A stretch of 64,000 bases of DNA, taken from contig DASVAS010000063.1 of the NCBI GenBank assembly GCA_036376245.1, positions 27,798-91,797 of the forward strand, given 5' to 3'. The notes beneath the pieces were generated by a model that was not told the origin of the DNA, ran no database searches, and saw nothing but the letters and a program-made list of their open reading frames with translations. Below, piece after piece: positions 9,701 through 23,302 of this stretch. This DNA is from Thermoanaerobaculia bacterium (GTDB taxonomy: Bacteria > Acidobacteriota > Thermoanaerobaculia > Multivoradales > UBA5704). Every line of letters begins with the position of its first letter. Positions within the stretch are counted from its first letter, which is position 1. The position numbers and the translations under genes are program-made.

Positions 9701-9901
9701 GGGCTCGGTGACCGCCTTCTCCACCTGTTCCGGAGCGACGTCCGGATAAGCCGTCCAGACGACCAGGGAGGGGTAGCGGAGGGACGGCAGCAGCGCCACC
9801 GGCAGCCGGAACAAGGCCACCACCGCCAGGGCGAGGACCAGCAGGTAGAAGGCCGCCATGGCGACCGGCCGGCGGAGCAAGGCTCGGATCAGGGATTCCA
9901 C
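6782..9901 (-). CDS. RND-family efflux transporter permease
   Basis: 1039-aa ORF. The N-terminus MESLIRALLRRPVAMAAFYLLVLALAVVALFRLPVALLPSLRYPSLVVWTAYPDVAPEQVE is a typical AcrB/CzcA start. It lies 12 nt downstream of the adaptor gene. Confidence 0.9.
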   Translation of the reverse strand: MESLIRALLRRPVAMAAFYLLVLALAVVALFRLPVALLPSLRYPSLVVWTAYPDVAPEQVEKAVTEPVEEAVAGAAGLAGVTSRSQLGGSLVRLDFGWNADLDLAAIDVREKLDRLGGLLPERAERPLVLRIDPSDRPIMVLAVGLAGTATGASPPVPDLLRLKQAARDVVARRLEQLDGVARVRVTGGYEPEIEVAVSPARAAAYGIDLEKISGALRDANVSLAGGVVRRGPFRYAVEVSGELRDAGELAATIVSEHGQPPVRLYDVAEVREGTTRRRGLVRLDGGETLLLLVERRPDANTVQTARAVRDALGDLRAQLPGVRLAPVVDESVFIESAISGVVQSLIGGAVLTVMILLVFLRRPRALLAAAVAVPLSLALTLVLFELFGISFNLISLSGLALGVGLLLDNSTVVVENIARLRESGMDAWKAACRGTAEVAGPITASTLTTVAVFLPITFVEGLAGRLFRDQSLAIVCSVLSSLLVALTAVPLIAARDRTVTPDFTGQAGGLTLRLYERLLDVAVRRRWATLAATGLLLALTAAMALRLPREIVPEEEEGRVQVSLTLPTDADVELVSERAREIEAAAARWPEVRHVLADLGERDDARLDLEPRPVYRGDLTLVLAPGKTSADVLPRLRGLGLSPDIGIEARPVRPQLDALLAGSDVDLEIDLTAGNRSDAERSLGPLMAALRGRRELVNLARTDPEAVPAYRVELDRDAVARFGVRPPVLQTYLEAAARGREATRLRSVNDEIPVVLHAAAVDSIERLLAERIPAASGLLPLGSFVRAEAVQLPAVLLRSHQGPIVRLTADTAPGATLQDAVRAVEETAERAALPPSVRVRVGGANESFRSSLIAVGQSLLLSLLLVYLILAAQFESLLQPLVILSAVPLAAVGIVFCLALTGQSWNLMSLTACVVVVGIVDNDAIVKVDFINQARRSGLSLVEAIRAAGRNRFRPIVMNTLTTVLGLLPMSLGLGQGGGLQASLAITIVGGLLSATALTLVVVPVIYMLVDGGAERLRTRRPDPRRGEEDGTEPCAAA

Positions 9902-9913
9902 GGCGTCGCCTCC

Positions 9914-11164
9914 TCACCGCAGGGCGGCTGCCGTTTCACCGGCCAGCACGGTTTCGACCGGCGCCTCGTGCGCCAGGGAGAAGTGCCCGCCGGTGGCGAC
10001 GACATCCCCCGGCGAGAGGCCCTCTACGATCTCGACCAGGCCGCCCGCCTTGCGTCCCACCTGGACGTAGGTCCAGAGCGCCCGGCCCTCCTCGACCCGG
10101 AAGACCACGTCGCGTCCCTGGCGGACCAGCAACGCGCTCGCCGGCACCACCAGCCGGTCCGGCAGGCGCTCGGCCTCCAGCTCGACCGTGGTGAAGAGAC
10201 CGGTCAGCAGCAGGCGGCGGGGGTTGGGGATGGCGACCGTGACGCGGCCGGTGCCGGTCTCGGGGTCGATGCGGGGGTTGATGGTGTGAACCGTGCCTTC
10301 GAGCGTGAGGCCGCCGGCCGACGGGATGCGCACGCGGGCCGGCGCGCCCTTGCGGACGCGCACGATGTCCGCCTCCAAGACGTCCACGTCCACTTTGAGG
10401 CGGTCATCCTGGAGCAGGGTCATCAGCGCGTCCCCGGGGCCGACGTGCTGGCCCGCCTCCACCGCCAGGTCGGCGACACGGCCGGCGAAGGGGGCCAGGA
10501 TGCGGGTCCGCTCCAGGGCCAGACGGCCGCGCTCCACCTGCTGCTCGGCCTGGACAAGGCCGCTGGTGACGGCCCGCACCTCGCCCTGGCGGGAACCGGA
10601 GAGCAGCCGGTCCGCCTCGTAGCGCCGGCGCGCCTCGTCGAGGCTGCGCCGGGGGAGGAGCCCCTCCGCGACGAGCTTCTCCAGGCGGAGGATGTCGTCG
10701 GGAACGGCGGCCGGGGCGGGGCGGGCCTGCTGCGGCGCGGGCTGCTCGTAGTTCACGGCGTAGAAGGCCTGGCTCTTGAGGAGCTCCGCCCGGGCCTCCT
10801 CCAGCGCGACCAGATACTCGCGGTCGTCCAGCCGGACGAGGAGCGCTCCGGCGGCCACGGCGCCGCCCTCCTCCACGGAGCGCTGGACGACGCGCCCCGC
10901 CAGGTCCGCCCGGATCTCGACCTTGCGCCAGGGCTCCAGGTAACCGGTGGCCTCGACCCGCACCGGCAGGTCGGCCCGCCGCGCCCGCGCGGCCTCGACG
11001 CGGGCGGCCCGCGGCTCGGCGGCCACCGGGTCCACCGGCGGGCGGGGGACGGAGGCTTCGGAAGGACTCCTGGAGCTCCAGGCCAGGCCCCCGGTTGCGA
11101 GAGTCGCCAACAGCAGGGCGGCAACGGACCAGCGCAGGTTACGGTTCTTGACAGGGCTGCTCAT
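9914..11164 (-). CDS. RND efflux periplasmic adaptor (membrane fusion protein, HlyD-like)
   Basis: Trimmed to the ATG at 11164 (MSSPVKNRNLRWSVAALLLATLATGG signal/anchor, GGAGG SD). It has a coiled-coil hairpin and beta-barrel pattern (VEATGYLEPWRKVEIRADLAGRVV...). Confidence 0.85.
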   Translation of the reverse strand: MSSPVKNRNLRWSVAALLLATLATGGLAWSSRSPSEASVPRPPVDPVAAEPRAARVEAARARRADLPVRVEATGYLEPWRKVEIRADLAGRVVQRSVEEGGAVAAGALLVRLDDREYLVALEEARAELLKSQAFYAVNYEQPAPQQARPAPAAVPDDILRLEKLVAEGLLPRRSLDEARRRYEADRLLSGSRQGEVRAVTSGLVQAEQQVERGRLALERTRILAPFAGRVADLAVEAGQHVGPGDALMTLLQDDRLKVDVDVLEADIVRVRKGAPARVRIPSAGGLTLEGTVHTINPRIDPETGTGRVTVAIPNPRRLLLTGLFTTVELEAERLPDRLVVPASALLVRQGRDVVFRVEEGRALWTYVQVGRKAGGLVEIVEGLSPGDVVATGGHFSLAHEAPVETVLAGETAAALR

Positions 11165-11216
11165 GACTACCTCCGTTGTGGACCGCGGGCGGAAACTTGC
11201 CGAGGAGAAGCTGCGC

Positions 11217-11250
11217 GCGCCTCCGGCCGCCACAGGGAAGCCGGAGGCGC
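11217..11250 (-). terminator. GC-rich 11-bp stem-loop after the fulvocin-like gene (possible attenuator/partial terminator, no U-tract)
   Basis: gcgcctccggc (11217-11227) pairs perfectly with gccggaggcgc (11240-11250) around a 12-nt loop. The structure lies in the 94-nt gap between 11259 and 11164. Confidence 0.3.
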
Positions 11251-11258
11251 CGTTTGCA

Positions 11259-11990
11259 TCAGGTCGCGGCGTTCACTTTGCAGGAACCGTCACAGTCATA
11301 GGTCCAGAACGTTCCGCACTCGTCGGAGATGCGGATGCAGCCGCCCCCAGTGCAATTGAATCCGGAGCTGCAGTAATCAGAGGCATCGCTGCAACTGCAA
11401 CCGGTGTCCGGGGCGGGCTGCTGCTGGCCGGACGTAAGCTCCTCCACCATCTGCAGGCCCGGGACGATCGCCTCGGCTTTCTGACGGTCGATGAAGTAGA
11501 GGGTGTCCGTATCCGCCGGACCGATACGGGCAAAGATTCTGGCGGCACGGTCGGCGCCGAAGGCCTCCTTGGCTCGGGTTTCCAGACTTTCGACCCGGCT
11601 CCGCATCTGTCGATACTTGAGGCTGGAACGGTCCCTGGTGGCGGCGAAGGTGTCCGGCGTCGCCAGTTGAACAGCTTCCAGCAAAAGCGCCTTTTGCGCC
11701 GGCGTCAGCTCCGTCTCCATCTCCAGAACCCGTTCCAGCTGAGTCCGCCAGATCCGGCTCTTGGCGGCGGCCGGCAGGGCCGCGTAGGCCGCCCGCCGAT
11801 AGGCCAGCGGCATGACGGAGAGCTCTTCATAGGTCTGCGGCAGATTTCCTCTGTTCGCCGCCGCCCATTCGTGGGCTTCGGAGCGGCAGATGCGTTGCGC
11901 GAACGCAGAGCCCGGCAACGCCAGGACGATACCGAGGGAAAGCAGCAGGGCGGTACGGCGGACACACTTCGAGCGGGAACTGGCGTTCAT
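11259..11990 (-). CDS. Fulvocin-C-related pro-bacteriocin: signal peptide + ~170-aa helical pro-region + 8-Cys C-terminal domain
   Basis: Trimmed to the ATG at 11990 (AGGAG SD). The signal is MNASSRSKCVRRTALLLSLGIVLALPGSAFA|Q. The C-terminus CSCSDASDYCSSGFNCTGGGCIRISDECGTFWTYDCDGSCKVN carries a CSCS-ASDYC signature and 8 Cys, as I recall for fulvocin C of Myxococcus fulvus. Confidence 0.7.
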   Translation of the reverse strand: MNASSRSKCVRRTALLLSLGIVLALPGSAFAQRICRSEAHEWAAANRGNLPQTYEELSVMPLAYRRAAYAALPAAAKSRIWRTQLERVLEMETELTPAQKALLLEAVQLATPDTFAATRDRSSLKYRQMRSRVESLETRAKEAFGADRAARIFARIGPADTDTLYFIDRQKAEAIVPGLQMVEELTSGQQQPAPDTGCSCSDASDYCSSGFNCTGGGCIRISDECGTFWTYDCDGSCKVNAAT

Positions 11991-12046
11991 GGATTTCCTC
12001 TCCTTTCTGTTTATCGACCTGGAATGAGAATCGAGTCTTCGGCGAC

Positions 12047-12253
12047 TCAACTACCTGGAGGCGGTGGCGGCGGAGGCGCGTACACGTTGCAGGTGAACTC
12101 CGTGCAGGGGGGAACAAGATCATCGACCAGCCCTCCCAGCACCCGCGACAGAAGCTCCTCCAGAAGCTCCGCGCTGTCGACATCCCGCCGCTCCACACGG
12201 AACAGGGCGCGATTCAGAACGGTATCCTGACAGGGAACTGTTCTCTTTTTCAT
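12047..12253 (-). CDS. Candidate RiPP precursor peptide (68 aa): helical leader, GG motif, Cys-containing core, hepta-proline tail
   Basis: The sequence is MKKRTVPCQDTVLNRALFRVERRDVDSAELLEELLSRVLGG|LVDDLVPPCTEFTCNVYAPPPPPPPGS. A GGGAGGG SD lies 4 nt before the ATG. The gene has its own sigma-54 promoter and sits 262 nt downstream of a radical SAM/SPASM gene. Confidence 0.7.
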   Translation of the reverse strand: MKKRTVPCQDTVLNRALFRVERRDVDSAELLEELLSRVLGGLVDDLVPPCTEFTCNVYAPPPPPPPGS

Positions 12254-12320
12254 TCTACCCTCCCTGAACCTTTGCTGCGTGTTTCTTATCGATCATCTTT
12301 CCCTTGCGCCATCTCTACAG

Positions 12321-12336
12321 TGCAAGCGCCTTGCCA
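12321..12336 (-). promoter_or_regulatory. Sigma-54 (-24/-12) promoter for the precursor peptide / fulvocin-like genes
   Basis: The minus strand reads TGGCAAGGCGCTTGCA. This matches TGGCAC-N5-TTGCA with exact GG-N10-GC spacing, about 68 nt upstream of the ATG at 12253. Confidence 0.75.
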
Positions 12337-12386
12337 GGCTGAAGAGAGGGAAAAGCCTTGTTTCAAGCCTGTTTAAGGCACAGACG

Positions 12387-12402
12387 GGGTAACCGGTTAC
12401 CC
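12387..12402. promoter_or_regulatory. Perfect 16-bp palindrome GGGTAACCGGTTACCC; candidate enhancer-binding-protein site (UAS)
   Basis: Read directly from the sequence. It lies about 50 bp upstream of the sigma-54 promoter at 12321-12336 and shares GGGTA-N6-TACCC with the two dyads at 14122-14158. An extra half-site GGGTAAC lies at 12409-12415. Confidence 0.7.
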
Positions 12403-12443
12403 ATCGGCGGGTAACGGATGACACCATGAAAGCTGATCAATAG

Positions 12444-12475
12444 AAACCAAAAAAACGGGGCGGCAGCGCCGCCCG
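12444..12475 (-). terminator. Rho-independent terminator after the radical SAM gene
   Basis: The minus strand reads CGGGCGGCGCTGCCGCCCCG followed by TTTTTTTGGTTT. This is a GC stem (gggcggc/gccgccc) with a short loop and a U-tract, 40 nt after the stop at 12515. Confidence 0.75.
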
Positions 12476-12514
12476 GAAGGTATCGATGCAGAAAAGGGAA
12501 GGATTCTGGAAGGA

Positions 12515-14014
12515 TCAGAGATCGCAGACCCGCGCGCCCAGGGCGGCGGCGGGAGATCCGGCGGCGTGCGCCAGGTAGGCCTCGGCGACGCTCGCCTTGA
12601 ACCGGGAGGCGAAACCGTCGCAGTAATTCGAGTGGAACTTGCCGCTGCCGGCGAGCGCCAGCACGGCGCAGCCGCCGCCGCAGTGGAGGGCGTAGCGGCA
12701 GCGGCGGCAGGTCGGATTGGATGCCACCGTCCGGCTGCGCCAGAGCTCGGACTGATCTTCCTTCAATTCCACGTGACCGTCCGGCAGCACGCAGCCGATC
12801 CGCACATTGCGGTCCCCGGTGCGCTCCCAGCAGGCGTAGATGTCGCCGAACGGATCGAAGATGTACATCTTGTCGTGGGCGCTGCAGAAGCTCGGCCGCA
12901 GGCTCGGCAATACATTGCCGGGCGAGTCGAAGATCCGCCGGGCGCGGACGCGCAACCCCTCGTCCGGCCGCGCCAGCACCGCCACGTCCGGATGCTCCTC
13001 GCGCAACCGCGTCAGCTCGCGGTCGAGATCCCAGGAGCTGAAGACGCCGCCGCGATCGGTCTTGCCGTTGCCGGCGCGGACCGGCGAGGTATAGGCCGAG
13101 AAGCGCGGGTGGCGGTGCCAGCCCTGGGCGACGATCTCCGCCGCCAGCGCCGGCAGGTTGGCGAGGTTCGCCCGGTCGACGTTGATGCGGACGCTGACCG
13201 CGGCGCCCCGCTCCAGAGCCATGGTGATGTTGGCGGCGATCCTGGCGTAGGAGCCGGAGCCGTCGGCGTGGATGCGCCGCTGGTCGTGCTCCCGCGGCGG
13301 ACCGTCCAGCGTGATCTGGAGGGCCGCGATGCCGGCCGGCCCCAGAAGGTCGGCGTAGGCGTCGATCTCGGTGCCGTTGGTGACCGCCCAGAGGTCCGCC
13401 TCGCCCATCTCGAAGGCGCGGGCCAGGATGTGCTCGACGACCGGCCGGTGGGCCGCCAGCAGCGGCTCGCCGCCGAAGAAGCCGATGTTGCGCCGCCGCC
13501 GCGCTCCGGGCTCCAGGCCGTGGCGCTCCTCGATCCGCGGCAGCGCCGCGAAGATGCGGTCGACCATCGCCGGCCGCATGGTGCGCAGCAGGTGCTTGAA
13601 GCCGCAGTCGGTCCGCATGTGGTCCTGATAACAGTACGAACATCGCAGATTGCAGTCGTAGGTCGGCATGAAGATGTAGCTCGGCGGCTGCCGCAGGGCG
13701 CGGGCGTGGAGCGCCTCGGCGAGCCGGGAGAAAAAGGTTTCTTCTTCCTCCCGCGAGAGATCGGTGAGGTATCCCTGCCGGCGCAGGAGGTCGATCGTCG
13801 CGTCCGCGGGCTGCTCCGCCTCGGCGGCCTCCGGCTCCGGGCTCCAATCGCCGTAGAGGGGCTTCTCGGCCCCCCTGCCCTGGCGTGAGCGAAGGAAGCC
13901 GGCCACCTCGCGGGACACCTTGTCGTGGGCGCCGGTGTAGCCGTGTACCAGGAGGACCTCTTCCTCGTTGTCCGGCAGGTTCACATAGATCGTATAGCTG
14001 CTGGTCCGGAGCAT
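12515..14014 (-). CDS. Radical SAM/SPASM-domain peptide maturase with N-terminal RRE-like domain
   Basis: Trimmed to the ATG at 14014 (MLRTSSYTIYVNLPDNEEEVLLVHGYTGA..., AAGGAG SD). The radical SAM cluster motif is YDCNLRCSYCYQ (CxxxCxxC). The C-terminal SPASM motif is CRRCRYALHCGGGC (Cx2Cx5Cx3C), with an upstream CSAHDK...YACW. Confidence 0.85.
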   Translation of the reverse strand: MLRTSSYTIYVNLPDNEEEVLLVHGYTGAHDKVSREVAGFLRSRQGRGAEKPLYGDWSPEPEAAEAEQPADATIDLLRRQGYLTDLSREEEETFFSRLAEALHARALRQPPSYIFMPTYDCNLRCSYCYQDHMRTDCGFKHLLRTMRPAMVDRIFAALPRIEERHGLEPGARRRRNIGFFGGEPLLAAHRPVVEHILARAFEMGEADLWAVTNGTEIDAYADLLGPAGIAALQITLDGPPREHDQRRIHADGSGSYARIAANITMALERGAAVSVRINVDRANLANLPALAAEIVAQGWHRHPRFSAYTSPVRAGNGKTDRGGVFSSWDLDRELTRLREEHPDVAVLARPDEGLRVRARRIFDSPGNVLPSLRPSFCSAHDKMYIFDPFGDIYACWERTGDRNVRIGCVLPDGHVELKEDQSELWRSRTVASNPTCRRCRYALHCGGGCAVLALAGSGKFHSNYCDGFASRFKASVAEAYLAHAAGSPAAALGARVCDL

Positions 14015-14063
14015 GGCGGGAACTCCTTTCGAGGATACGAACCGCTCGGCGGCAGGGTCCGGG

Positions 14064-14079
14064 TGCAAGCGATGGACCA
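14064..14079 (-). promoter_or_regulatory. Sigma-54 (-24/-12) promoter for the radical SAM maturase
   Basis: The minus strand reads TGGTCCATCGCTTGCA with exact GG-N10-GC spacing and a TTGCA -12 element, 50 nt upstream of the ATG at 14014. Confidence 0.7.
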
Positions 14080-14121
14080 GGCCGGCGCGCGAGGAAGCGG
14101 AACCCCTCGACGCCGAAAATT

Positions 14122-14158
14122 GGGTAATCCATTACCCACAACGGGTAAACTGATACCC
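14122..14158. promoter_or_regulatory. Two dyads GGGTAATCCATTACCC and GGGTAAACTGATACCC (centres 21 bp apart); candidate shared UAS for divergent sigma-54 promoters
   Basis: Read directly at 14122-14137 and 14143-14158. Both fit GGGTA-N6-TACCC. They lie midway between the minus-strand promoter (14064-14079) and the plus-strand promoter (14202-14217). Confidence 0.7.
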
Positions 14159-14201
14159 GTTTGAAACGCGGCACGAACGGGCTCCCTCCGTGGCGATGGC
14201 A

Positions 14202-14217
14202 TGGCACAGCGGGTGCA
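14202..14217 (+). promoter_or_regulatory. Sigma-54 (-24/-12) promoter for the ABC-2 transporter operon
   Basis: The plus strand reads TGGCACAGCGGGTGCA. It has a perfect TGGCAC -24 element, exact GG-N10-GC spacing and a GTGCA -12 element. Confidence 0.7.
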
Positions 14218-14283
14218 ATTCCGTGCGCCGAGTCCATGGCGCGGATCGAAAACCTAGGAGGAGAAGAGAGCGGGGCGACGACG

Positions 14284-15891
14284 ATGCTGGGCGCCTGCAT
14301 CAGAAAGGAAATCCTCTGCCACCTGGCCAGCGTCCGCTTCTGGGTGGCGACGCTGATCACGGTGATCCTCGCCGCCGGGGCGACTCTGGTGGCGGCGCGG
14401 GATTACGAGTCGCGCCTGGAACGGTACGAAGACCGCCTCGCGGCCCAGCAGCGGGAGCTCCGGAACGTTTCGGTCTACTCCTTCCTCCAGCCGGTCGTCC
14501 TGCGGCCGCCGGAGCCTCTCAGCGTGCTCGATCAGGGTTTCGACGCGCGCCTGGGGACGGAGGTGAGGATCCACCTCTTCGGGATCCCCACCCATGCCAC
14601 CGGGAGCTCGCGGGGCAACGAGCTCCTGGCGGGCCTGCCCGCCGCCGAGGTGGACCTCACGACCATCGTCTCCGTGATCCTGGGATTGCTGGCGCTGCTC
14701 CTCGCCTGCGACGCCGTCACATGCGAGCGGGAGGAGGGTACCCTGCGGACCCTGCTCGCCCAGGGGGTCTCCCGCCGCGTCGTCCTGGCGGGGAAGGCGC
14801 TCGGCGGGCTGCTTACGCTCTGCCTGGCCCTCACGGCGGCGCTCGGCGTCAGCTTCGCCGTCCTGACCCCCACCGTGGGCTGGGAGCCCTATGCGGGCCG
14901 CGGTCTCCGGATGGCTGGACTGGTGGCGTCCTACCTGCTCTACCTGGCTCTCATGTTCCTGCTGGGGCTGCTCATCTCGCTGCGCGCGCGGAGCAGCGCG
15001 CGGGCCCTGGTCGTCGCCGTCCTCCTCTGGCTCGTCACCGTCGTGGTCCTGCCCCAGGTGGCCTGGACGGCGGCGGCCAGCCTCGTGGACACCCAGGAGG
15101 CGGCGAGCCGGACGGAGGTCCGGGAACGCCGGCTCGCCGAAAGTGAACGCCGGCGGCTCGGAGAGGCCTTCGCCCGGCACCCTCTGCGCCGGGCCTTCAG
15201 CGGACACACGGCGATCTCCTACACCGCGGGCTCCCATGGGGGAGTCCGCTATCGGAACGGCTCGGCCGCGTACTATGACGCGCTCCGGGAGTACTACGGC
15301 TTCGCGGTCAGATCCGGTCTCCTGCAGGCGGAGCAATCCTACGCGACGCATCGGCGGTATGAGGAGCGCCTGCGGCAAGCGGAGCGGCTCGGTTTCTGGC
15401 TCTCCGCCGCCTCTCCGGCGGTCCTGCTGGACCGCCTTTCGGAGTCCTTCGCCGGCACCTCCTTCGAGGACCACGACGCGTTCCTCGCGGAAAGCCGGCG
15501 GTACCGGCAGACACTCCTCACGTTTCTCACCCGCCAGAGCGCTTTTCGTTCCTGGCGCTGGTTCACCGACGATCCGCCGGAGCGCCTGTACCCCTGGCCC
15601 CGGTTCCTGGGACTGCGCCCCGAAGAAGTCGACGCGGCCCGCGTCCACCTGCTGTTCAACCGCCTGAGCTCGGCGGCAATCCAGCCGAAGCTCCAGCTCC
15701 AGAGGAGCGCGGCCGAGGCCGATCCCTCCCGGCGTCTCGACCTGGCCGGTCTGCCGGGGTTCGCCTACCGCGGCCCGAAGCTGCGCGATTGCCTGTGCCG
15801 TGCCGCCCCGGAAGGCCTCTTCCTCCTGCTGCTCGTCATCCTGACGGGCGCCGCGGCCTGGAGCCGTTTCGTCAGGTACCCGGTGAGGTGA
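14284..15891 (+). CDS. ABC-2-type transporter permease with long C-terminal extension
   Basis: The chosen start is the ATG at 14284 (MLGACIRKEILCHLASVRFWVATLITVIL, a typical ABC-2/NosY-like N-terminus), downstream of the sigma-54 promoter. The ATG at 14236 is an alternative. Multiple TM helices are followed by a helical soluble region and a last TM. Confidence 0.7.
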   Translation: MLGACIRKEILCHLASVRFWVATLITVILAAGATLVAARDYESRLERYEDRLAAQQRELRNVSVYSFLQPVVLRPPEPLSVLDQGFDARLGTEVRIHLFGIPTHATGSSRGNELLAGLPAAEVDLTTIVSVILGLLALLLACDAVTCEREEGTLRTLLAQGVSRRVVLAGKALGGLLTLCLALTAALGVSFAVLTPTVGWEPYAGRGLRMAGLVASYLLYLALMFLLGLLISLRARSSARALVVAVLLWLVTVVVLPQVAWTAAASLVDTQEAASRTEVRERRLAESERRRLGEAFARHPLRRAFSGHTAISYTAGSHGGVRYRNGSAAYYDALREYYGFAVRSGLLQAEQSYATHRRYEERLRQAERLGFWLSAASPAVLLDRLSESFAGTSFEDHDAFLAESRRYRQTLLTFLTRQSAFRSWRWFTDDPPERLYPWPRFLGLRPEEVDAARVHLLFNRLSSAAIQPKLQLQRSAAEADPSRRLDLAGLPGFAYRGPKLRDCLCRAAPEGLFLLLLVILTGAAAWSRFVRYPVR

Positions 15892-17381
15892 GCAAGTTGC
15901 TGAATTCTCTCCTACCTTCGCCATCCTTCGATCCCGCCGCCGGCTCGGGCAAGCTGGCGGCGGAGCCTCAGGCTCCCCGGGGAGTGGTGGCGACGATCGC
16001 CCGGCATGAGGCGGGCCGCCAGATGGCCAGCTTACGGTTCCGCCTGGTGTCGGTCCTGCTGCTCGGTCTCCTCGTCCTGCCGGCGTTCACGGCGTCGGAG
16101 AGGTACGACCGCGAACGGCGGTCACAGGCCGAGGTGGCCGCAAGCCACGACGCGTCTCTCCGCGGAATGACGGTCGACGGGCTGGCGGAGGTCCGGCATC
16201 CGGCGTTGCGCCCGCCGTGGCGCCTCGCCTTCGCGGTCGACGGCGGCCAGGCCGCGACCCCGGACGTCTATGAGCAGGCGCTCAGTCCCCTGATCGCGCC
16301 CGTGCTCCGTCGTGCCGAGCGCGGCAACGACCGCCTCCCAGGCCCCGCGCCGCTGGACTGGATGTTCGTCATCCGGGTGGTCCTCTCGCTCGCCGCTTTC
16401 CTGCTGGGCCATGACGCGATCTGCGGCGAACGGCAGATCGGGACGCTGAAGCTCCTGATGTCCTACCCGGTCCCCCGCTGGCGGATCCTGGCCGGCAAGC
16501 TGGCGGCCCTCTGGGGCTGCCTGGCGGTCCCCTTCCTGGCGGGAGCCGGGCTGAGCCTCGCTCTGGTCTTCGCCCTCGGGCGGGCGCCGCTCGGCGCCGT
16601 GGACCTCGTCAAGGCCGGACTGGTGGTCCTCCTCGGCCTCTGGGCCGCGGCGTTCTTCGCGCTCGCCGGGCTGGCCGTCTCCGCCGCCGCCCGGACGTCC
16701 TCCACCAGCCTGAGCGTGCTCGCGCTCCTGTGGGTCGGGGCCGTGGTGGCCGTCCCCGCTCTCGGCCACCTGCTCGCCCACCGGCTGTCCCCGATCCCGG
16801 CCGAGGGGGAGATCGAGCGGCGCATGCTGGAGGTCCAGCGGCGGATCGCCCGCGAGCATGCCGGCCACGAGGGGCGCTGGCGGGCGCCGGATTGGGCCGC
16901 CAACGACGGCTACGCCTGGGAGAAGGCCTCGGCTCGAGTGGAGACCGAACGCCGGCATCTCCAGGAAGAGATCCGCTGGTGGGTGATCGGCCGCAAGCTG
17001 GAGCAGGCGCGGACCGCCCGCCTCCTCTCCGCCCTGTCGCCGGCCTTGCTCATCCAGGACCTCGGAGAGCGGCTGACGGGCTCCGGCGTCCGGCGGGACC
17101 AGGAGTTCCTGGCGCAGGCCCGCGCCTACCGCGCCGTCCTGGCGGACCGGGTACGGAGGCTCGACCAGGCGGACCCCGCGAGCCCTCACATCCTCTTCTT
17201 CGAGGGCTATCTCTCGCGGCGGACCGTTCCGCCCGGGTCCCTCCCGCCGTTCGCCTTCCGTGAGATCCCGATGGCCGGCGCTCTCGCCGCCGCCCGAGCG
17301 CCTCTCGCGCTCCTCGCTCTCGAAACCCTCCTCCTCGCCGGCTTCGTCTTCCGGCCGCGGAAAGCGGGGGCGCTGCCATGA
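15888..17381 (+). CDS. Second ABC-2-type transporter permease (paralog of 14284-15891)
   Basis: The GTG at 15888 overlaps the upstream TGA (GTGA); GTG at 15984/15987 are alternatives. The segment ATIARHEAGRQMASLRFRLVSVLLLG parallels the ACIRKEILCHLASVRFWV start of the paralog. It has multiple TM helices. Confidence 0.65.
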   Translation: MSKLLNSLLPSPSFDPAAGSGKLAAEPQAPRGVVATIARHEAGRQMASLRFRLVSVLLLGLLVLPAFTASERYDRERRSQAEVAASHDASLRGMTVDGLAEVRHPALRPPWRLAFAVDGGQAATPDVYEQALSPLIAPVLRRAERGNDRLPGPAPLDWMFVIRVVLSLAAFLLGHDAICGERQIGTLKLLMSYPVPRWRILAGKLAALWGCLAVPFLAGAGLSLALVFALGRAPLGAVDLVKAGLVVLLGLWAAAFFALAGLAVSAAARTSSTSLSVLALLWVGAVVAVPALGHLLAHRLSPIPAEGEIERRMLEVQRRIAREHAGHEGRWRAPDWAANDGYAWEKASARVETERRHLQEEIRWWVIGRKLEQARTARLLSALSPALLIQDLGERLTGSGVRRDQEFLAQARAYRAVLADRVRRLDQADPASPHILFFEGYLSRRTVPPGSLPPFAFREIPMAGALAAARAPLALLALETLLLAGFVFRPRKAGALP

Positions 17382-18097
17382 TCGAAGCGATCCACCTCAG
17401 CATGCGCTACCCGAACGGCGTCCTGGCCCTGGACGCCCTCAACCTGCGGGTCGAGCCGGGGGAGATCTACTGCCTCCTCGGCGCCAGGGGCGCCGGCAAG
17501 ACGACGGTGGTCGACCTGTTCCTCGGCTTCCAGGAGGCGACCGCCGGCCGGGCGTTGATCGACGGGATCGAGGTGGCGCGGGAGCCGTTGCGGGCCAGGT
17601 CGCGGGCCGCCTATCTGGCCGCGGACACGGCGTTCTACGGCCGCCTGACGGCGCGTCAGAACCTGGAGCTCTTCGCCCGGCTGGGCGGCCGGCCGGACCG
17701 GACGCGGGCGGACTGCGAGATGGCCCTGCGCGAGGTGGGGCTGCCGGAGGCGGCCTTCGAGCGACGGGTGGCGAGCTTCACCCCGGGGATGACGCGCAAG
17801 CTGGGGGTCGCCGCGGCGCTGGTCAAGGACGCTCCCGCCCTTCTCCTCGACGAGCCGCTCTCCGGCCTCGATCCCAAATCGGCCGCCGAGGTGGTGGAGC
17901 TGCTGGAGCCCCTGCGCGACTCCGGCAAGGCGCTGCTGATCACGCTGGAGGATCTGGTCTGGGCCCGGCAACTCGCCGACCGGGTGGGCATCCTGCAGGA
18001 AGGCCGGCAGGTGTTGACCCGTACGCGGGACGAGCTGAGATACGACAACCTCGAAAAGCTCTATCTGGACTATCTGCGCGGCTTCACGCTTTCCTAG
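17378..18097 (+). CDS. ABC transporter ATP-binding protein
   Basis: 239 aa. Walker A is GARGAGKTT, the signature-like motif is LSGLD, and Walker B is LLLDEP. An ATGA overlap links it to the upstream permease. Confidence 0.9.
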   Translation: MIEAIHLSMRYPNGVLALDALNLRVEPGEIYCLLGARGAGKTTVVDLFLGFQEATAGRALIDGIEVAREPLRARSRAAYLAADTAFYGRLTARQNLELFARLGGRPDRTRADCEMALREVGLPEAAFERRVASFTPGMTRKLGVAAALVKDAPALLLDEPLSGLDPKSAAEVVELLEPLRDSGKALLITLEDLVWARQLADRVGILQEGRQVLTRTRDELRYDNLEKLYLDYLRGFTLS

Positions 18098-18100
18098 ACG

Positions 18101-19504
18101 TCAGACGGCGGAGTCCTCCGTCTCCTCGCCGGTCAGGCCGTACTGGCGCATCTTGTTGAACAGCGTCTTGCGGCTCACGCCCAGGCTCTCGGCGGTGGCG
18201 GTGCGGCTGCCCCGGTGCTCGGCGAGACGGGAGAGGATCATCATCCTCTCCAGCCGCTCGGTGGCCTGGGTCACCGCCTCGCTCAGCGTGAGCCGGACGA
18301 GATCGGACCCGAGGGCCACGTCCGGCCCGGCGTTTTCCCCCCGCACCCGGCCGGGCAGGTCCGCCGCCGTCAGGGTGTCCCCCTCGCAGAGGATCATCGC
18401 CCGGCAGACGGTGTTCTCCAGCTCGCGGATGTTGCCCGGCCACTGGTAGTCGCAGAGCAGTTGCCGGGCGTCCGGCGCGATCGACTCCACCGCCAGGCCC
18501 AGCTCGCGGTTGAAGCGGTCCACGAAGTGGTCGATCAGGAGAGGCAGGTCGGCCGGCCGCTCGCGCAACGGGGGCAGGCGGACGTGGACGACGTTCAGCC
18601 GCCAGTAGAGGTCCTCGCGGAAGCGCCCCGCCCGGCACTCCTTCTCCAGATCCTTGTTGGTGGCGGCCACCACCCGCACGTCCACCGGCCGGGGAGCGCG
18701 GGCGCCGATGCGGTGGATCTGCCGCTCCTGCAAGGCCCGCAGGAGCTTGGCCTGGGCGTCGAGGGCGAGGTCTCCCACCTCGTCGAGGAAGAGCGTGCCG
18801 CCGTCCGCCAGCTCGAACCGCCCCTGCCGGGCCTCGCGGGCGTCGGTGAAGGCGCCCTTCTCGTGGCCGAAGAACTCGGACTCGACCAGCGTCTGCGGGA
18901 TGGCGCTGCAGTTGACCGCCACGAACGGGCCTTCCGACCGCCCGCTGCGGCGGTGGATGGCCCGCGCCACCAGCTCCTTGCCGGTGCCCGATTCGCCGGT
19001 GATCAGCACCGTGACGTCCACCCGCACGACCTTGGCCATCATGCGGAAGACCTCCTGGATCTCCCGGCTGACGCCCACGATCTCGCTGAACCCGTAGCGG
19101 GTTTCGAGATCCTCCCGCAAGGCCGTGTTCTCCGACGTCAGCCGCTTCACCTCGAGAGCGCGGTCGACGACCATCAGCAGCTCGTCGTTGTCGAACGGCT
19201 TGGCGATGTAGTCGTGGGCGCCGCGGCGCATCGCCTCGACCGCCGAGGAGATGGTGCCGTGGGCGGTCATCATCACCACGATCAGCTCGGGGTTCAGGGC
19301 GCGCAGCCGCTTGAGGGTCTCCAGGCCGTCCATGCCGGGGAGCTTCAGGTCGAGCAGCGCGAGATCCGGCTTCGCTTCCGGCAGGGCCGCCAGAGCCTCC
19401 TCGCCCGAGCCCACCTCGGCGACCCGGTGCTGCCGCTCCTGCAGCAGCACGGAGAGGATGCGCCGGATCGGCCGTTCGTCGTCAACGATCAGGATGTTGG
19501 CCAT
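18101..19504 (-). CDS. Sigma-54-dependent response regulator (REC - AAA+ - Fis-type HTH; NtrC family) with GAFTDA loop variant
   Basis: Trimmed to the ATG at 19504 ([15 protein letters not shown]..., phospho-acceptor context [13 protein letters not shown]). The AAA+ Walker A is GESGTGKE and the sigma-54 contact loop reads [10 protein letters not shown]. The C-terminal HTH is [20 protein letters not shown]. Confidence 0.9.
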
Positions 19505-20844
19505 GTCTCTCCTTCGAGCAGCGGCAGGCGGATCGCCACCGTGGTCCCCTCCCCCACCTTGCTCTCCAGGTGGATCTCGCCTTCGTGCTGCTCGATGATG
19601 CCATGACAGATCGCCAGCCCCAGGCCGGTGCCCTCCCGCTTGGTGGTGAAGAAGGGATCGAAGACCCGCCGCAACTGGTCCGGCGGGATCCCCGGCCCGG
19701 TGTCCTCGACGCAGATCTCCACCCAGGAGACGTCGCGAGGGCTCTGGCCGGATCGCGGGGCCCACGGATGGACCGTCACCGAGATCCGCCCCCCGTTCGA
19801 CATGGCCTGGAGAGCGTTGAGCAGGAGGTTCAGGAAGACCTGCTTCAACTGGCCGTCGTCGCCGAGCACGCGGAGGCTTCCGGCCGCGAGATCGCTCCGG
19901 ATCTCCACGCCTTGCTCGGCGGCCCTGGCCTGCACAAGCTGCACCGCCTTGCGGAGAGTCGCCAGCAGGTCGATATCGGACTTCCGGATCTCTCCCGAGC
20001 GGCTGAGGCTGAGGAGCCCGCCCACGGTGCCGTTGATGCGGTCCACCTCGCTCAGGAGCTCTTCGACCAACTGGTGCTTCGGCGTGCCGGGATCGAGATC
20101 GCGCAGCAGGTATTGCATCGTGGAGCGGATCGCCGTCAGAGGGTTGCGGATCTCGTGGGCCACCCCGGCCGCGAGCTGCCCGACGGCGGCCAGACGCTCG
20201 GCCCGGTGGAGGCGGTCCAGGCGCTCGCGCTGGGCGCGGTACAGCGCCGCGTTCTCGAAGGCGAGACTGGCCTGGGAAGCCAGCAGGTTCAGGAGCTCGA
20301 CGTCGCTGCGGCCGAGACCGCCGCCCGGCCTGCCGAGGCCCAGGAGGACAATGCCCGTCAGCCGGTTCAGGGAAATCATGGGGACGCAGACGTTGAGCCG
20401 CAGCCGGTCGAGGAGGTCCCGCTCGGCAGGATCGAGGTACTCGTGGACTCCGGTCTGGCGGTCCAGGATCAGGGAGGTCTCGTTGACGGAAAGCCAGCGC
20501 GCCAGCTTGCCGCGCGCCGGCACCCGCAGATCCGCCAGGTCCGCCTCCGCCAGTCCGAAGGAGAAGCCCGGCAGGAAGGCCGCGGTCGGCCGGTCGGGCT
20601 CCAGGACGGCCATCCGCTCGGGATCGAGCAACTCCCGGATGCGCGCCGCCACGCTGGCCTCCAGGGCTTCGCGGTCGACGATCAGCGCCAGGGACCGGCT
20701 GAGCTCCTGGACGGCACGCCGGTTCGCCTTCCGCCTGCGGAAGCGGTCGAAAATGCCCTCGAAGATGAGCTTTCGCTGCATCCTGCGCGGATCATACGAC
20801 GGAATCTTGTCCCGTCTCGGGGAGCGGCGCACACCGCAATTCAT
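19489..20844 (-). CDS. Cytoplasmic GAF-domain sensor histidine kinase
   Basis: 451-aa ORF with no TM segment and a GAF-like N-terminal half. The H-box is GVAHEIRNPLTAI; the N/G boxes are LNLLLNALQA, EDTGPGIP and GTGLGLAI. It overlaps the regulator start by 16 nt. The start may be the ATG at 20781. Confidence 0.85.
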   Translation of the reverse strand: MNCGVRRSPRRDKIPSYDPRRMQRKLIFEGIFDRFRRRKANRRAVQELSRSLALIVDREALEASVAARIRELLDPERMAVLEPDRPTAAFLPGFSFGLAEADLADLRVPARGKLARWLSVNETSLILDRQTGVHEYLDPAERDLLDRLRLNVCVPMISLNRLTGIVLLGLGRPGGGLGRSDVELLNLLASQASLAFENAALYRAQRERLDRLHRAERLAAVGQLAAGVAHEIRNPLTAIRSTMQYLLRDLDPGTPKHQLVEELLSEVDRINGTVGGLLSLSRSGEIRKSDIDLLATLRKAVQLVQARAAEQGVEIRSDLAAGSLRVLGDDGQLKQVFLNLLLNALQAMSNGGRISVTVHPWAPRSGQSPRDVSWVEICVEDTGPGIPPDQLRRVFDPFFTTKREGTGLGLAICHGIIEQHEGEIHLESKVGEGTTVAIRLPLLEGETWPTS

Positions 20845-20875
20845 GGAGGGTCATCTACTTCCAGAAGGGGGATCT

Positions 20876-23302
20876 ATGTCTTGGACTCGATGTATCGCAG
20901 TCCCGCTCGTCCTCGTCGCCGCTCTGACGGCGCCGGCGGCGGGCAAGCCCCGGCTCGTAGTCGAGACGGGAGCCGGCGTCAACAAGGTGTTCGCGGAGGT
21001 GGAGGCGGGCAACAAAGGCCAGGTGCGGCGCAGCCTGCTGCGCATGACCTCGGCGGCGGTGACGCCGGGCGTCACCGGGTCCGATCCGGCGGGACGGGCC
21101 TCCTTCGCGACGTGGAACGAGGCCGGCGAGCGCTGGTTCACCGCCACCCAGGACGGCGGCCGGAGCTGGTCGAATCCCCGGGCTGTCCAGACCGCCCTGC
21201 TCCTCCTGGCCGGCGCCGTCGAGCCGGGCGCCAAGGCCCAGACCGTGCCACCGGGCCTCTCCTTGCCCGCCGAGGGACGGCTGTTCCTGGTGCAGTTCCG
21301 CACCCTCAGTCTCCCCGAGTGGCGCGCCGCCCTTCAGGACCTCGGCGCCGAGGTCCTCAACTACTTCCCGTACAACGCCCACATCGTCCGCATGAGCCCC
21401 GGGCTGGCCAAGACCGTGGAGGGCCTCGACTTCGTCGAGCGCGTCGAGCCCTACCACCCGGCGCACCGGCTGGAGCCGGAGCTGCGGGACTGGGTCCAGG
21501 CCGAAGGCGGGCCGGCGGATTTCCGCGTCCGCGTCATGGCCTTTGAATGGGGCCCCGAGGGCAAGGAGCGCATCCGCCAGGCCGCCCAGGCCGACGGCGC
21601 CGGCGTCGCCGCCAACACGCCCAGCGGCCATGTGATCGAGCTGGTGGTCAACCGCGGCCAGCTCCGCCGCCTCGCCGCCAACGACGACGTGCTGTGGATC
21701 GACCGCTGGAGCGCCCCCGAGAACGACATGGACCTGGTGCGCGGCGACACCGGCGCCAGCTTCCTCGAGACCAACTTCGGCACCTGCGGCCAGGGCGTGC
21801 GCGGCGAGGTCCTCGACGGCGGGTTCGAGAGCACCCACCAGGACTTCGACGGCGTCATCCTGCACGGCTCCAACACCGCCGCGAGCCACGGCACCAGCAC
21901 CTACGGCATCGTCTTCGGCAACGGCAACCGGGACGGCGACGGCAACGCCCAGGGCCTCGGGCAGCTCGTCTGCGGCGCCCAGGGCATCTCCGCCGACTAC
22001 GACTTCCTCACCGACCGCTTCGCCCACACCCAGCGGTTGAAGAATTCGCCCTACTTCGCCTCGTTCCAGAGCAACTCCTGGGGCAACGCCCTGACCACGG
22101 CCTACAACAGCATCTCCAGCGAGATGGACGACATCATCTGGCGGCTGGACATCGCCATCGCCCAGTCGCAGTCGAACGCCGGCACCCAGAGCAGCCGGCC
22201 GCAGGCCTGGGCGAAGAACGTCATCAGCGTCGGCGGCGTCTATCACTTCAACACCGCGTCCACCACGGACGACCGGTGGAACAGCGGCGCCTCCATCGGT
22301 CCGGCGGCGGACGGGCGCCTCAAGCCGGACGTGCACTACTGGTACGACAGCATCTTCACCACCACCTCCGGCAACACCTACACCACCGGCTTCGGCGGCA
22401 CCTCGGCGGCGACCCCGGAGGTGGCGGGCGTGCTCGGCCTGATCGTCCAGATGTGGTCGGAGAACGTCTGGGGGACCAACCCCCAGGGCTCGACCGTGTT
22501 CGAGCGCCAGCCGCACGCCTCGACGATCAAGGCGCTGCTGATCAACAGCGCCGTCCAGTACCCGTTCACGGGCACCACCAGCGACCTCACCCGCACCCAC
22601 CAGGGCTGGGGACGGCCCAGCGCCCGGGTGGCCCGCGAGCGCGCCGCCAACAGCCTGGTGGTCGACGAGTCCACGCCGCTGCAGCTCAACCAGACGGCGA
22701 CCTACACGGTCTCGGTCCCCTCCGGAGCCGCCGACCTCAAGGCCACCATGGTCTATCCGGACCCGCCGGGCACGACCTCCGCGTCCCTGCACCGGATCAA
22801 CAACCTGAACCTGCGGGTGACCTCGCCGACGGGCACGATCTACTGGGGCAACAACGGCCTCAACGCCGGCAACTGGTCCACCTCGGGCGGCAGCGCCAAC
22901 GCGGTGGACACGGTGGAGAACGTGTTCGTCCAGAACCCCGCCGCGGGCTCCTGGACCGTCGAGGTGCAGGCGGCCGAGATCAACCAGGACGCCCACCTGG
23001 ACACGGCCGCGGCCGACGCGGTGTTCGCCCTGGTGGTGACCGGCGGCACCAGCCAGCCGGCCTTCTGCGGCAACGGCGTCATCGAGGCCGGCGAGGCCTG
23101 CGACGGCGTCAACCTGGGCGGCCAGACCTGCCAGACCTTCGGCTTCAACTCCGGCACCCTGACCTGCAACGTCAACTGCACGCTGAACACCAGCGCCTGC
23201 GTCAACCTCTGCACGGCGTCCGGCGGAAGCTGCACGCAAAACAGCCAGTGCTGCCCCGGCCTCTCCTGCAGGGGCCCGAACGGCCGCAAGACCTGCCGCT
23301 AG
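20876..23302 (+). CDS. Secreted S8 (subtilisin-like) serine peptidase with C-terminal cysteine-rich domains
   Basis: Track ORF 19628-23302 was trimmed to the ATG at 20876 (MSWTRCIAVPLVLVAALTAPAAG signal, AAGGGGG SD), because its upstream part is antisense to the kinase gene. The catalytic triad contexts are VLDGGF (Asp), SHGTSTYG (His) and GGTSAATPEVAG (Ser). The tail reads CGNGVIEAGEACDG...CTQNSQCCPGLSCRGPNGRKTCR. Confidence 0.85.
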   Translation: MSWTRCIAVPLVLVAALTAPAAGKPRLVVETGAGVNKVFAEVEAGNKGQVRRSLLRMTSAAVTPGVTGSDPAGRASFATWNEAGERWFTATQDGGRSWSNPRAVQTALLLLAGAVEPGAKAQTVPPGLSLPAEGRLFLVQFRTLSLPEWRAALQDLGAEVLNYFPYNAHIVRMSPGLAKTVEGLDFVERVEPYHPAHRLEPELRDWVQAEGGPADFRVRVMAFEWGPEGKERIRQAAQADGAGVAANTPSGHVIELVVNRGQLRRLAANDDVLWIDRWSAPENDMDLVRGDTGASFLETNFGTCGQGVRGEVLDGGFESTHQDFDGVILHGSNTAASHGTSTYGIVFGNGNRDGDGNAQGLGQLVCGAQGISADYDFLTDRFAHTQRLKNSPYFASFQSNSWGNALTTAYNSISSEMDDIIWRLDIAIAQSQSNAGTQSSRPQAWAKNVISVGGVYHFNTASTTDDRWNSGASIGPAADGRLKPDVHYWYDSIFTTTSGNTYTTGFGGTSAATPEVAGVLGLIVQMWSENVWGTNPQGSTVFERQPHASTIKALLINSAVQYPFTGTTSDLTRTHQGWGRPSARVARERAANSLVVDESTPLQLNQTATYTVSVPSGAADLKATMVYPDPPGTTSASLHRINNLNLRVTSPTGTIYWGNNGLNAGNWSTSGGSANAVDTVENVFVQNPAAGSWTVEVQAAEINQDAHLDTAAADAVFALVVTGGTSQPAFCGNGVIEAGEACDGVNLGGQTCQTFGFNSGTLTCNVNCTLNTSACVNLCTASGGSCTQNSQCCPGLSCRGPNGRKTCR

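Follow-up and report, generated by a model that had tools for sequence, protein, structure and literature searches.

A candidate NtrC-type sigma-54 regulon uniting a radical SAM peptide, a bacteriocin and an ABC-2 transporter in Thermoanaerobaculia

The stretch of DNA analysed here, hereafter the window, comprises 64,000 nucleotides from a Thermoanaerobaculia bacterium (assembly GCA_036376245.1, contig DASVAS010000063.1, positions 27,798-91,797), an uncultured soil Acidobacterium of this class. It carries genes for a radical S-adenosylmethionine (rSAM) peptide maturase, for a 68-aa precursor of a ribosomally made peptide that is modified after translation (RiPP), for a fulvocin C-related bacteriocin and for an ATP-binding cassette (ABC) transporter of the ABC-2 type, together with those for an NtrC-family response regulator and a GAF histidine kinase (Table 1). 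We consider it likely that the toxin precursor, the maturase and the transporter are jointly controlled as an NtrC-type two-component sigma-54 regulon. The initial annotation of this DNA had already read the locus as one regulon, and comparative evidence points the same way: the conservation of the motifs, the synteny of the genes, the near-invariance of both the DNA-binding domain and the DNA half-site, and enhancer–promoter distances falling into classes about 11 bp apart.

In the mechanism that we propose, an intracellular signal would act on the cytoplasmic GAF kinase (19489-20844), which would pass a phosphoryl group to the receiver domain of the regulator, an enhancer-binding protein (18101-19504). 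In dimeric form, this regulator would bind, via its C-terminal Fis-type helix-turn-helix (HTH), two GGGTAA-N4-TTACCC dyads placed 21-22 bp, that is two helical turns, apart. The active AAA+ ring would then assemble on the dyad pair and, by DNA looping, the closed complexes of sigma-54 RNA polymerase would be remodelled and opened. The central pair (14122-14158) would serve the divergent promoters P_ABC and P_rSAM, each about 75 bp away; a terminator would end the rSAM transcript, and the pair at 12387-12424, with the promoter P_pep, would drive the precursor and probably the fulvocin-like bacteriocin. The expected outcome would be a joint induction of precursor, maturase, second bacteriocin and ABC-2 transporter, the last acting as exporter or immunity pump. 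In this scheme, we infer that the regulator binds the dyads, that kinase and regulator are partners in phosphotransfer, where transcription starts, and that the transporter serves export or immunity; the motifs with their conservation and geometry, the synteny, the domain content and the occurrence of rpoN in the class were observed.

Table 1. Predicted regulatory elements and genes of the locus, in window coordinates
Feature	Coordinates	Strand	Details
P_ABC, predicted sigma-54 -24/-12 promoter TGGCACAGCGGGTGCA	14202..14217	+	predicted start ~14228; before ABC-2 operon
P_rSAM, predicted sigma-54 -24/-12 promoter TGGTCCATCGCTTGCA	14064..14079	-	predicted start ~14053; before rSAM gene
P_pep, predicted sigma-54 -24/-12 promoter TGGCAAGGCGCTTGCA	12321..12336	-	predicted start ~12310; before peptide gene
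Enhancer dyad GGGTAAACTGATACCC, nearer ABC promoter	14143..14158	.	position weight matrix (PWM) score 18.6
Enhancer dyad GGGTAATCCATTACCC, nearer rSAM promoter	14122..14137	.	PWM 22.5; 21 bp centre-to-centre from the 14143 dyad
Peptide enhancer, strong proximal dyad GGGTAACCGGTTACCC	12387..12402	.	PWM 26.0, best of the window
Peptide enhancer, degenerate distal dyad GGGTAACGGATGACAC	12409..12424	.	PWM 8.2; 22 bp from the 12387 dyad
Intrinsic terminator (GGGCGGCGCTGCCGCCC, then T-run)	12458..12474	-	just past rSAM stop codon
Radical SAM/SPASM peptide maturase	12515..14017	-	Pfam Radical_SAM; NCBIfam SPASM domain; conserved ATG at 14017
68-aa peptide, RiPP precursor	12047..12253	-	leader ends GG; core CTEFTCNVYAPPPPPPPGS; homologues after rSAM in related loci
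Secreted fulvocin C-related bacteriocin gene	11259..11990	-	NCBIfam NF033852, 112.7 bits (cut-off 35)
ABC-2 transporter operon	14284..18097	+	permease 14284-15891, permease ~15984-17381, ATPase 17378-18097
NtrC-family response regulator	18101..19504	-	REC, AAA+ sigma-54 interaction domain, HTH_8; GAFTDA loop
GAF-HisKA-HATPase histidine kinase	19489..20844	-	no transmembrane segment

Dyad pairs and -24/-12 elements in the window and in related loci

The three -24/-12 matches and the three dyads listed by the initial annotation were all recovered where it had placed them and with exactly the sequences given. The dyad stands well above its background: with one mismatch or less allowed, GGGTA-N6-TACCC has only three matches in the 64 kb, against 0.39 expected, none of 100 shuffles reached three, and the strict tandem pattern occurs once or twice per multi-Mb genome. 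Scoring with a PWM trained on orthologous sites likewise set the three strong dyads (Table 1) apart from the next matches of the window, at about 8. One site had been missed, namely the degenerate dyad at 12409-12424; since the peptide enhancer also holds this second dyad, every enhancer of the locus is a dyad pair rather than a single site. Elsewhere in the window, a lone weak PWM match (GAGTAAGCAATTTCCA, 38164-38179, score 8.3) has no partner dyad and is probably due to chance.

The central dyads were found, as had been claimed, to lie midway between the divergent promoters, and their arrangement is almost perfectly symmetrical. Specifically, from the pair centre at 14140 the -12 C of P_ABC is 76 bp away and that of P_rSAM 75 bp, while the two dyad centres lie about 77.5 and 98.5 bp from each predicted start. 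On the peptide side, the -12 C of P_pep is 83.5 bp from the centre of its dyad pair (calculated by hand). The dyads therefore have the layout that defines an upstream activating sequence, with two or more dyad sites on the same helix face about 70-150 bp upstream of the start. In all three promoters the GG-N10-GC spacing is exact, 9-10 of the 11 specified positions of TGGCAC-N5-TTGCW are matched, and each match is intergenic and oriented toward a gene.

Conservation was assessed by using the rSAM protein as a query on contigs representing one genome per species, which retrieved 27 loci (designated by L numbers): 25 from Thermoanaerobaculia or other Acidobacteriota metagenome-assembled genomes (MAGs), about 54-95% identical overall, one from an unclassified MAG and one from Methylobacterium. 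In the Methylobacterium locus the rSAM gene is present, and the regulator, the dyads and the promoters were not found. The rSAM/ABC intergenic regions of 25 loci could be aligned with that of the window by MAFFT (n=26). All 26 regions contain the dyad pair and the two divergent -24/-12 elements, and these promoters and the central dyad pair are the sole conserved islands of the alignment. On the ABC side, the conserved element reads ATGGCACG-N4-sTGCA, on the rSAM side CCTGGyCC-N5-TTGCAC (26/26 loci each), and the conserved centre is G.GTA-N5-TTACCC, N6, GGGTAA-N4-TTACCC. Column identity is 0.82-0.93 in the motifs, reaching 0.93 at the specified positions of P_ABC, versus 0.49 in the other 197 intergenic columns. 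Of the three-promoter wiring first put forward, P_ABC and P_rSAM thus hold in every aligned locus, whereas P_pep is limited to the window, L001 and L002.

The spacing of the elements is constrained as well. The dyad centres are 22 bp apart in 21 loci and 21 bp apart in five, and the distances from the pair centre to the -12 fall into classes of about 63, 72.5-76.5, 83.5-88.5 and 95.5-98.5 bp, so that they recur about every 11 bp (Rayleigh R about 0.75, with a rough P of about 0.004 on collapsed values, the genomes being related). Because the distances step by about 11 bp, insertions and deletions between enhancer and promoter appear to have kept the helical face, as looping activation predicts.

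Two further features of the intergenic region were noted in sister loci. Most of L003-L027 contain an extra A/T-rich segment of about 21 bp (e.g. GAAACCTCCACTTTTC) between the dyad pair and the rSAM-side promoter, which the window does not have; it shifts the enhancer by two helical turns (about 75 vs about 97 bp) and may represent a bend or an integration host factor-like site. In addition, a TATACT box (AGTATA on the aligned strand) is found near the predicted ABC start, just past the ABC-side -12, in most of L002-L027. It is not present in the window (14218-14240), in L001 and in a few other loci, and might mark a conserved leader start or serve as an operator or as a sigma-70 -10-like element.

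The gene calls of the locus, checked against Pfam and NCBIfam models, bore out the first assignments of the rSAM, peptide, bacteriocin, ABC-2, activator and kinase genes. The families nearest to the rSAM protein in NCBIfam are RiPP maturases, none of which reaches its cut-off, and both permeases of the ABC-2 operon contain ABC2_membrane_2 and DUF3526 domains. Every Thermoanaerobaculia contig of sufficient length shows the genes for kinase, regulator, ABC transporter, rSAM protein and peptide in synteny, and the ABC-2 operon converges on the kinase and regulator genes. The regulator is the best conserved of the products (about 70-95% identity), followed by the rSAM protein (58-95%) and the permeases (mostly about 50-65%). 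The window has a G+C content of 70% and its nearest relatives are MAGs of the same class (phylum Acidobacteriota). An Rfam search of positions 9000-22000 gave no match.

The regulator, the kinase and the assignment to sigma-54

The product of the regulator gene combines the receiver (REC), AAA+ and Fis-type HTH domains that mark a group I, NtrC-family enhancer-binding protein (Pfam Response_reg 2.9e-33, Sigma54_activat 9e-72, AAA_lid_14 1.7e-27 and HTH_8 5.7e-10), and its translation shows Walker A (GESGTGKE) and Walker B (LFLDEVG) motifs as well as the region of the receiver aspartate. Its HTH, with the motif SRT.TAESLG[VI], is nearly invariant among the orthologues, as is the dyad half-site. 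Dyad pairs are frequent near regulators whose HTH is at least 72% identical and were found in one of about 30 loci below 60%, a comparison confounded by the kinship of the genomes. When searched alone against a large protein database, the 69-aa HTH region yielded only 24 short, generically named fragments, which gave no informative context. Assignment of the regulator to a named equivalog was rejected, its NCBIfam bit scores being below the cut-offs for AtoC (497/714), NtrC (483/558.6), the PEP-CTERM regulator PrsR (428/503) and ZraR (401/760).

As for the kinase, the lack of a transmembrane segment indicates a cytoplasmic sensor, which in turn makes LanK-type sensing of an external peptide unlikely. 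Its true start is probably the ATG at 20781 rather than the annotated one. The annotated start lies only 32 bp from a divergent gene for a secreted S8 subtilase with a Cys-rich C-terminal end (20876-23302, plus strand). No dyad and no -24/-12 element was found in the window upstream of the kinase gene, a gap of 32-95 bp to the subtilase gene, and for this reason the two-component operon does not look autoregulated. With regard to sigma-54 itself, at least three Thermoanaerobaculia MAGs encode a full-length protein among the matches listed by an RpoN-box scan, and one of these open reading frames shows the AID, CBD and DBD domains by Pfam.

A number of observations weigh against the assignment of the locus to this regulator and to sigma-54, and they are collected here and in the following paragraph. 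First, the -24/-12 strings alone are at chance frequency in the window: matches of at least 9/11 with fixed GG/GC number five, against 5.7 expected, and TGG-N9-TGCA, with nine matches against 4.7 expected, is not above chance either. Because of this frequency, the promoters were judged on context and conservation. Second, the conservation of the motifs comes from related genomes, and the loci are not independent observations. Third, the sigma-54 contact loop (L1) of the regulator is GAFTDA and not the canonical GAFTGA. This loop is found in 28 homologues, among them the 51%-identical one of L097, and a single homologue has GSFTDA. Kazakov et al. placed GAFTDA among the variants expected to keep activity, and D. 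vulgaris DVU2106 carries it (PMC4641369). Fourth, a search for the RpoN box detected no rpoN in either the window or the 1.65 Mb of retrieved loci; the gene is known from other MAGs of the class, not from the window's own genome. Finally, a similar HTH is encoded at several loci that lack any dyad within 7 kb.

The dyads themselves have a wider distribution. Near-identical tandem dyads (GGGTAAGCGATTACCC-AAAGT-GGGTAACGGCATAC), with TGGCATAGCCAGTGCA about 100 bp downstream, were found in nine Thermodesulfobacteriota/SeepSRB2 loci (L036, L039, L048, L065, L075, L079, L088, L094 and L095). In the four examined (L036, L065, L079 and L088), the next gene is type IV pilin- or pseudopilin-like, with N_methyl and GspH domains in L088, and in an Acidobacteriota MAG (L064) a dyad pair of different sequence likewise precedes a pilin-like gene. 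No homologue of the window regulator was found within 8 kb of these pilin-associated dyads. Since similar dyads precede pilin-like genes without a regulator homologue, the dyad is not proof of which regulator binds it. The recognition code seems to be common to pilin regulation in another phylum, which shows that the candidate DNA code is older and wider than the window locus.

In Geobacter, Myxococcus and Pseudomonas, pilin genes are under the control of sigma-54-dependent regulators (PMC3333781). The comparison with PilS/PilR rests on the same type of tandem dyad, followed about 100 bp on by a -24/-12 element, before the Thermodesulfobacteriota pilin-like genes; no PilR-like gene was seen next to these dyad sites, and no published PilR or DVU2114 motif matching GGGTA/TACCC was found in the literature searched. 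The published PilR site of P. aeruginosa differs from the window dyad.

These data bear on an explanation in which the promoters are genuine sigma-54 promoters, but the dyads are bound by another enhancer-binding protein, for instance a PilR-like one with the same HTH specificity, while the adjacent regulator acts elsewhere or as a co-activator. Such an explanation would account both for the pilin-associated sites, with no regulator homologue in stretches of 8 kb, and for the loci in which a similar HTH has no dyad nearby. However, the regulator gene and the dyad pair occur together in every Thermoanaerobaculia locus that is long enough and in distant Acidobacteriota cassettes, HTH and half-site are both nearly invariant, and the one or two strict tandem matches per genome lie at rSAM or bacteriocin loci. 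On balance, we judge the involvement of a different activator to be unlikely.

Less probable still, in our opinion, is that the dyads are operators of a repressor or of another, sigma-70-type regulator, the -24/-12 matches being coincidental and unrecognized housekeeping promoters of the Acidobacteriota being used instead. The frequency of -24/-12-like strings in a window of 70% G+C and the TATACT box of most sister loci would be compatible with it. Against this, the 10-bp GG/GC spacing and the flanking consensus are kept on both sides in 26/26 loci whose neighbouring positions have diverged, the distances change by about one helical turn, the gene for an enhancer-binding protein is always adjacent, and no sigma-70-like promoter was found in 9500-21500.

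The peptide operon and further enhancer–promoter modules

Returning to the proposed sigma-54 regulon, the third promoter owes its role to the terminator between the rSAM and peptide genes, the lone minus-strand terminator-like site in 9500-21500 (12474-12458), a similar stem being visible in L001. Because this terminator follows the rSAM stop codon, the maturase of the window is predicted to form a transcription unit of its own, and the peptide gene to need P_pep. In most sister genomes, the peptide gene lies about 35 bp after the rSAM gene, with no terminator or promoter module of its own. As the peptide gene elsewhere follows the rSAM gene directly, P_pep is specific to one lineage; it is kept in L001 (TGGCAAAGCGCTTGCA) and, more weakly, in L002 (TGGTCTGCCCCTTGCA), and both also have the weak-plus-strong dyad pair before the peptide promoter.

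The fulvocin-like gene starts 56 nt past the peptide stop codon and, as no terminator is predicted in this gap, it is probably transcribed from P_pep. Judging from this arrangement, P_pep probably drives the peptide and the fulvocin-like gene, and possibly also the downstream genes for a resistance-nodulation-division (RND) adaptor and pump.

The peptide family has a leader of the form ..LNGAAFR..LLEETLAQVFGG, with a double-glycine end, and a core CTEFTCNVYAPPPPP; homologues were present across the L001-L027 loci examined. The locus thus has what characterizes a radical SAM/SPASM RiPP system, a maturase whose neighbour is a short, co-conserved precursor divided into leader and core. For the peptide family, neither Pfam nor NCBIfam gave a match. 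Although the leader is of the GG type, the cluster is without a C39 peptidase-type exporter.

What lies behind the peptide gene differs between close relatives. In L001, whose rSAM protein is 95% identical to that of the window, the region 10062-15213 contains, after the peptide gene, three tandem class III-type lanthipeptide precursors (MMD[SN]VLSLQLL...) with a RamC_N-kinase-LanC synthetase and an ABC exporter, whereas the same slot of the window holds the fulvocin-like gene, the membrane fusion protein (MFP) and the RND genes. As read from the two gene orders, the cargo is swapped behind the same predicted peptide promoter.

A scan of the genome collection for the strict tandem dyad gave 72 stretches. 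The pattern matched once in an 8.8-Mb Thermoanaerobaculaceae chromosome and once in a 5.9-Mb contig, and in the two MAGs with two strict matches the second lies at another rSAM/peptide locus or before a small Cys-rich secreted protein. In sister genomes, modules made of a dyad pair and a promoter were also found before lanthipeptide synthetase operons (L004 and L018), small secreted proteins and a MacB-type permease (L022); that of L024 precedes a fulvocin-like gene, and that of L026 a second copy of the peptide family. In particular, the module of L017 (10863-10984) is a clear duplicate of the genome's own rSAM-side enhancer and promoter, spacer included, with 90/122 positions identical (z = 14.5), and that of L015 (6915-7021) is likewise a duplicate of its own rSAM-side module (z = 9.2). 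These alignments suggest that the enhancer–promoter cassette spreads by duplication.

A second perfect dyad pair, with TGGCCCACGCCTTGCA, was observed at 4825-5300 of L072, another contig of the MAG that also contains L027 and L060. It precedes a gene for a 92-aa secreted Cys-rich protein (..GYCESDCCWATGEQVYCDNGGCWGSD..), which matched no Pfam family and may be another bacteriocin of the regulon.

A broader proposal, which we put forward tentatively and regard as about as open to doubt as to belief, with doubt slightly ahead, is that a portable cassette of about 110 bp (two GGGTAA-N4-TTACCC dyads plus -24/-12) has been copied repeatedly before unrelated antimicrobial-peptide operons of the Thermoanaerobaculia. 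One GAF kinase and one GAFTDA regulator would then act as a clade-wide master switch for bacteriocins, derived from an older ABC-2-only system of the Acidobacteriota, and the P_pep operon would be a swappable cargo slot, filled by fulvocin-MFP-RND in the window and, in L001, by three lanthipeptide precursors, an ABC exporter and a synthetase of the LanKC type. The cargo classes included in this proposal are the rSAM peptide, class III/IV lanthipeptides, fulvocin-like bacteriocins and small Cys-rich secreted proteins.

Distant relatives, known systems and significance

In Blastocatellia, Pyrinomonadaceae, Aminicenantes and other Acidobacteriota, the kinase/regulator/ABC-2 cassette is found with neither rSAM nor peptide genes, its regulators being 49-77% identical to that of the window. 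Dyad-like sites with -24/-12 matches lie at the ABC operon in L112, L115 and L141, and L120 has a dyad pair elsewhere in the locus. In most of the distant cassettes no motif was found in the approximately 420 bp before the first ABC gene located by tblastn, where other genes seem to precede the operon. Since the cassette is wider in Acidobacteriota than the RiPP genes, the two-component system and the transporter would be the older unit, and we infer that, in the Thermoanaerobaculia, RiPP genes came to occupy the free face of its enhancer.

The distant locus L097 (377-7973) comes from a MAG with the label Eubacteriales. Its dyad pair (GGGTAAAATCTTACCC-GATATC-GGGTAATTTTTTAC) has genes for a GAF kinase and a regulator (51% identical, GAFTDA) on one side and an operon on the other. 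A -24/-12 match (TGGCATGAATCTTGCC) stands at the head of this operon, whose products are a TolC-like outer-membrane protein, a NEW3-domain protein and an ABC-2 permease. The taxonomic label may be wrong, because an outer-membrane protein would be odd for a Firmicute.

This distribution raises a question of function rather than of mechanism, namely whether the system serves mainly resistance or detoxification, with an ABC-2 efflux pump induced by peptide or envelope stress and the RiPP genes borrowing the other face of the enhancer. The cassettes without rSAM and peptide genes, three of which have dyad-like sites with -24/-12 matches, would suit this role, as would the distant locus that pairs the cassette with a TolC-like protein. 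On the other hand, the Thermoanaerobaculia module stands repeatedly before bacteriocin, lanthipeptide and secreted-peptide operons, which argues for selection on co-regulated production, and a cytoplasmic kinase cannot sense external peptides directly. A primarily protective function seems to us rather unlikely, though it is the weightiest of the alternatives.

With respect to known systems, joint production control by an NtrC-type regulator from a shared enhancer has a close counterpart in layout. The initial annotation had called a shared bidirectional sigma-54 enhancer uncommon, a view that did not survive comparison with E. coli zraP-zraSR. As read from the MG1655 sequence, this region is arranged like the window, with two divergent -24/-12 promoters around two central inverted repeats, which we take to be the ZraR binding sites, and with the -12 elements about 80 and 88 bp from the pair centre, similar to the distances found here. 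Because E. coli has the same layout, the shared enhancer is not unusual. ZraR shares the REC-AAA+-HTH_8 architecture of the window regulator and is not its orthologue (NCBIfam 401 vs cut-off 760). The possibility that the dyad is an E. coli ZraR site was ruled out: the ZraR repeats are GAGTAAAAATGACTC, about 30 bp apart, versus GGGTAA-N4-TTACCC at 21-22 bp. ZraS is a periplasmic metal sensor. The zraSR kinase thus senses the periplasm, whereas that of the window is a cytoplasmic GAF protein; the Zra targets concern envelope stress, versus a RiPP and an ABC-2 transporter; and, unlike zraSR, the two-component operon of the window has no dyads of its own.

At glnAp2, NtrC is a phosphorylated REC-AAA+-Fis-HTH regulator that binds two dyads on the same face of the helix and activates a sigma-54 promoter by looping. 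The window regulator resembles NtrC in its domains, with 483 bits, under the NtrC cut-off of 558.6. The NtrC site is TGCACC-N5-GGTGCA, so that the DNA site of the window differs, as do its L1 loop (GAFTDA) and its targets, none of which belongs to nitrogen metabolism. LanR/LanK pairs (NisRK, SpaRK) are cluster-encoded two-component systems that co-regulate the precursor, modification and ABC immunity/export operons of a RiPP, LanK, a membrane kinase, responding to the mature peptide outside the cell and LanR being an OmpR-type sigma-70 activator. The window does not fit autoinduction of the LanRK type: its kinase is without a transmembrane segment and its regulator is a sigma-54 AAA+ activator.

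Direct control of antimicrobial secondary-metabolite genes through sigma-54 promoters is known from Myxococcus xanthus, where the enhancer-binding protein Nla28 acts on them (Ma, Welch and Garza 2021, PMC7910581). The targets of this global starvation regulator are polyketide synthase (PKS) and non-ribosomal peptide synthetase (NRPS) genes, and its promoters are mostly inside genes. In contrast, the window combines a cluster-encoded regulator and intergenic promoters with ribosomal-peptide targets, the rSAM RiPP and the fulvocin-like bacteriocin, to which sister loci add lanthipeptides. Our literature searches brought up no case of rSAM RiPPs, lanthipeptides or Thermoanaerobaculia clusters under sigma-54/enhancer control.

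The mechanism being textbook NtrC-type regulation, the understanding of sigma-54 systems is unchanged. What is distinctive here is the unusual class of targets, the conserved GAFTDA loop and the duplicating enhancer–promoter cassette. For a class of bacteria that is uncultured and genetically inaccessible, the analysis gives a precise candidate regulon, composed of a kinase, an activator, a 16-bp dyad and three promoters, and would add ribosomal peptides to the myxobacterial PKS/NRPS products among the antimicrobials whose synthesis is under sigma-54/enhancer control. If made constitutively active and supplied together with sigma-54, the activator could switch on silent RiPP and bacteriocin clusters in a heterologous host, and the signature of a dyad pair plus promoter could be a search key for more Thermoanaerobaculia bacteriocin loci.

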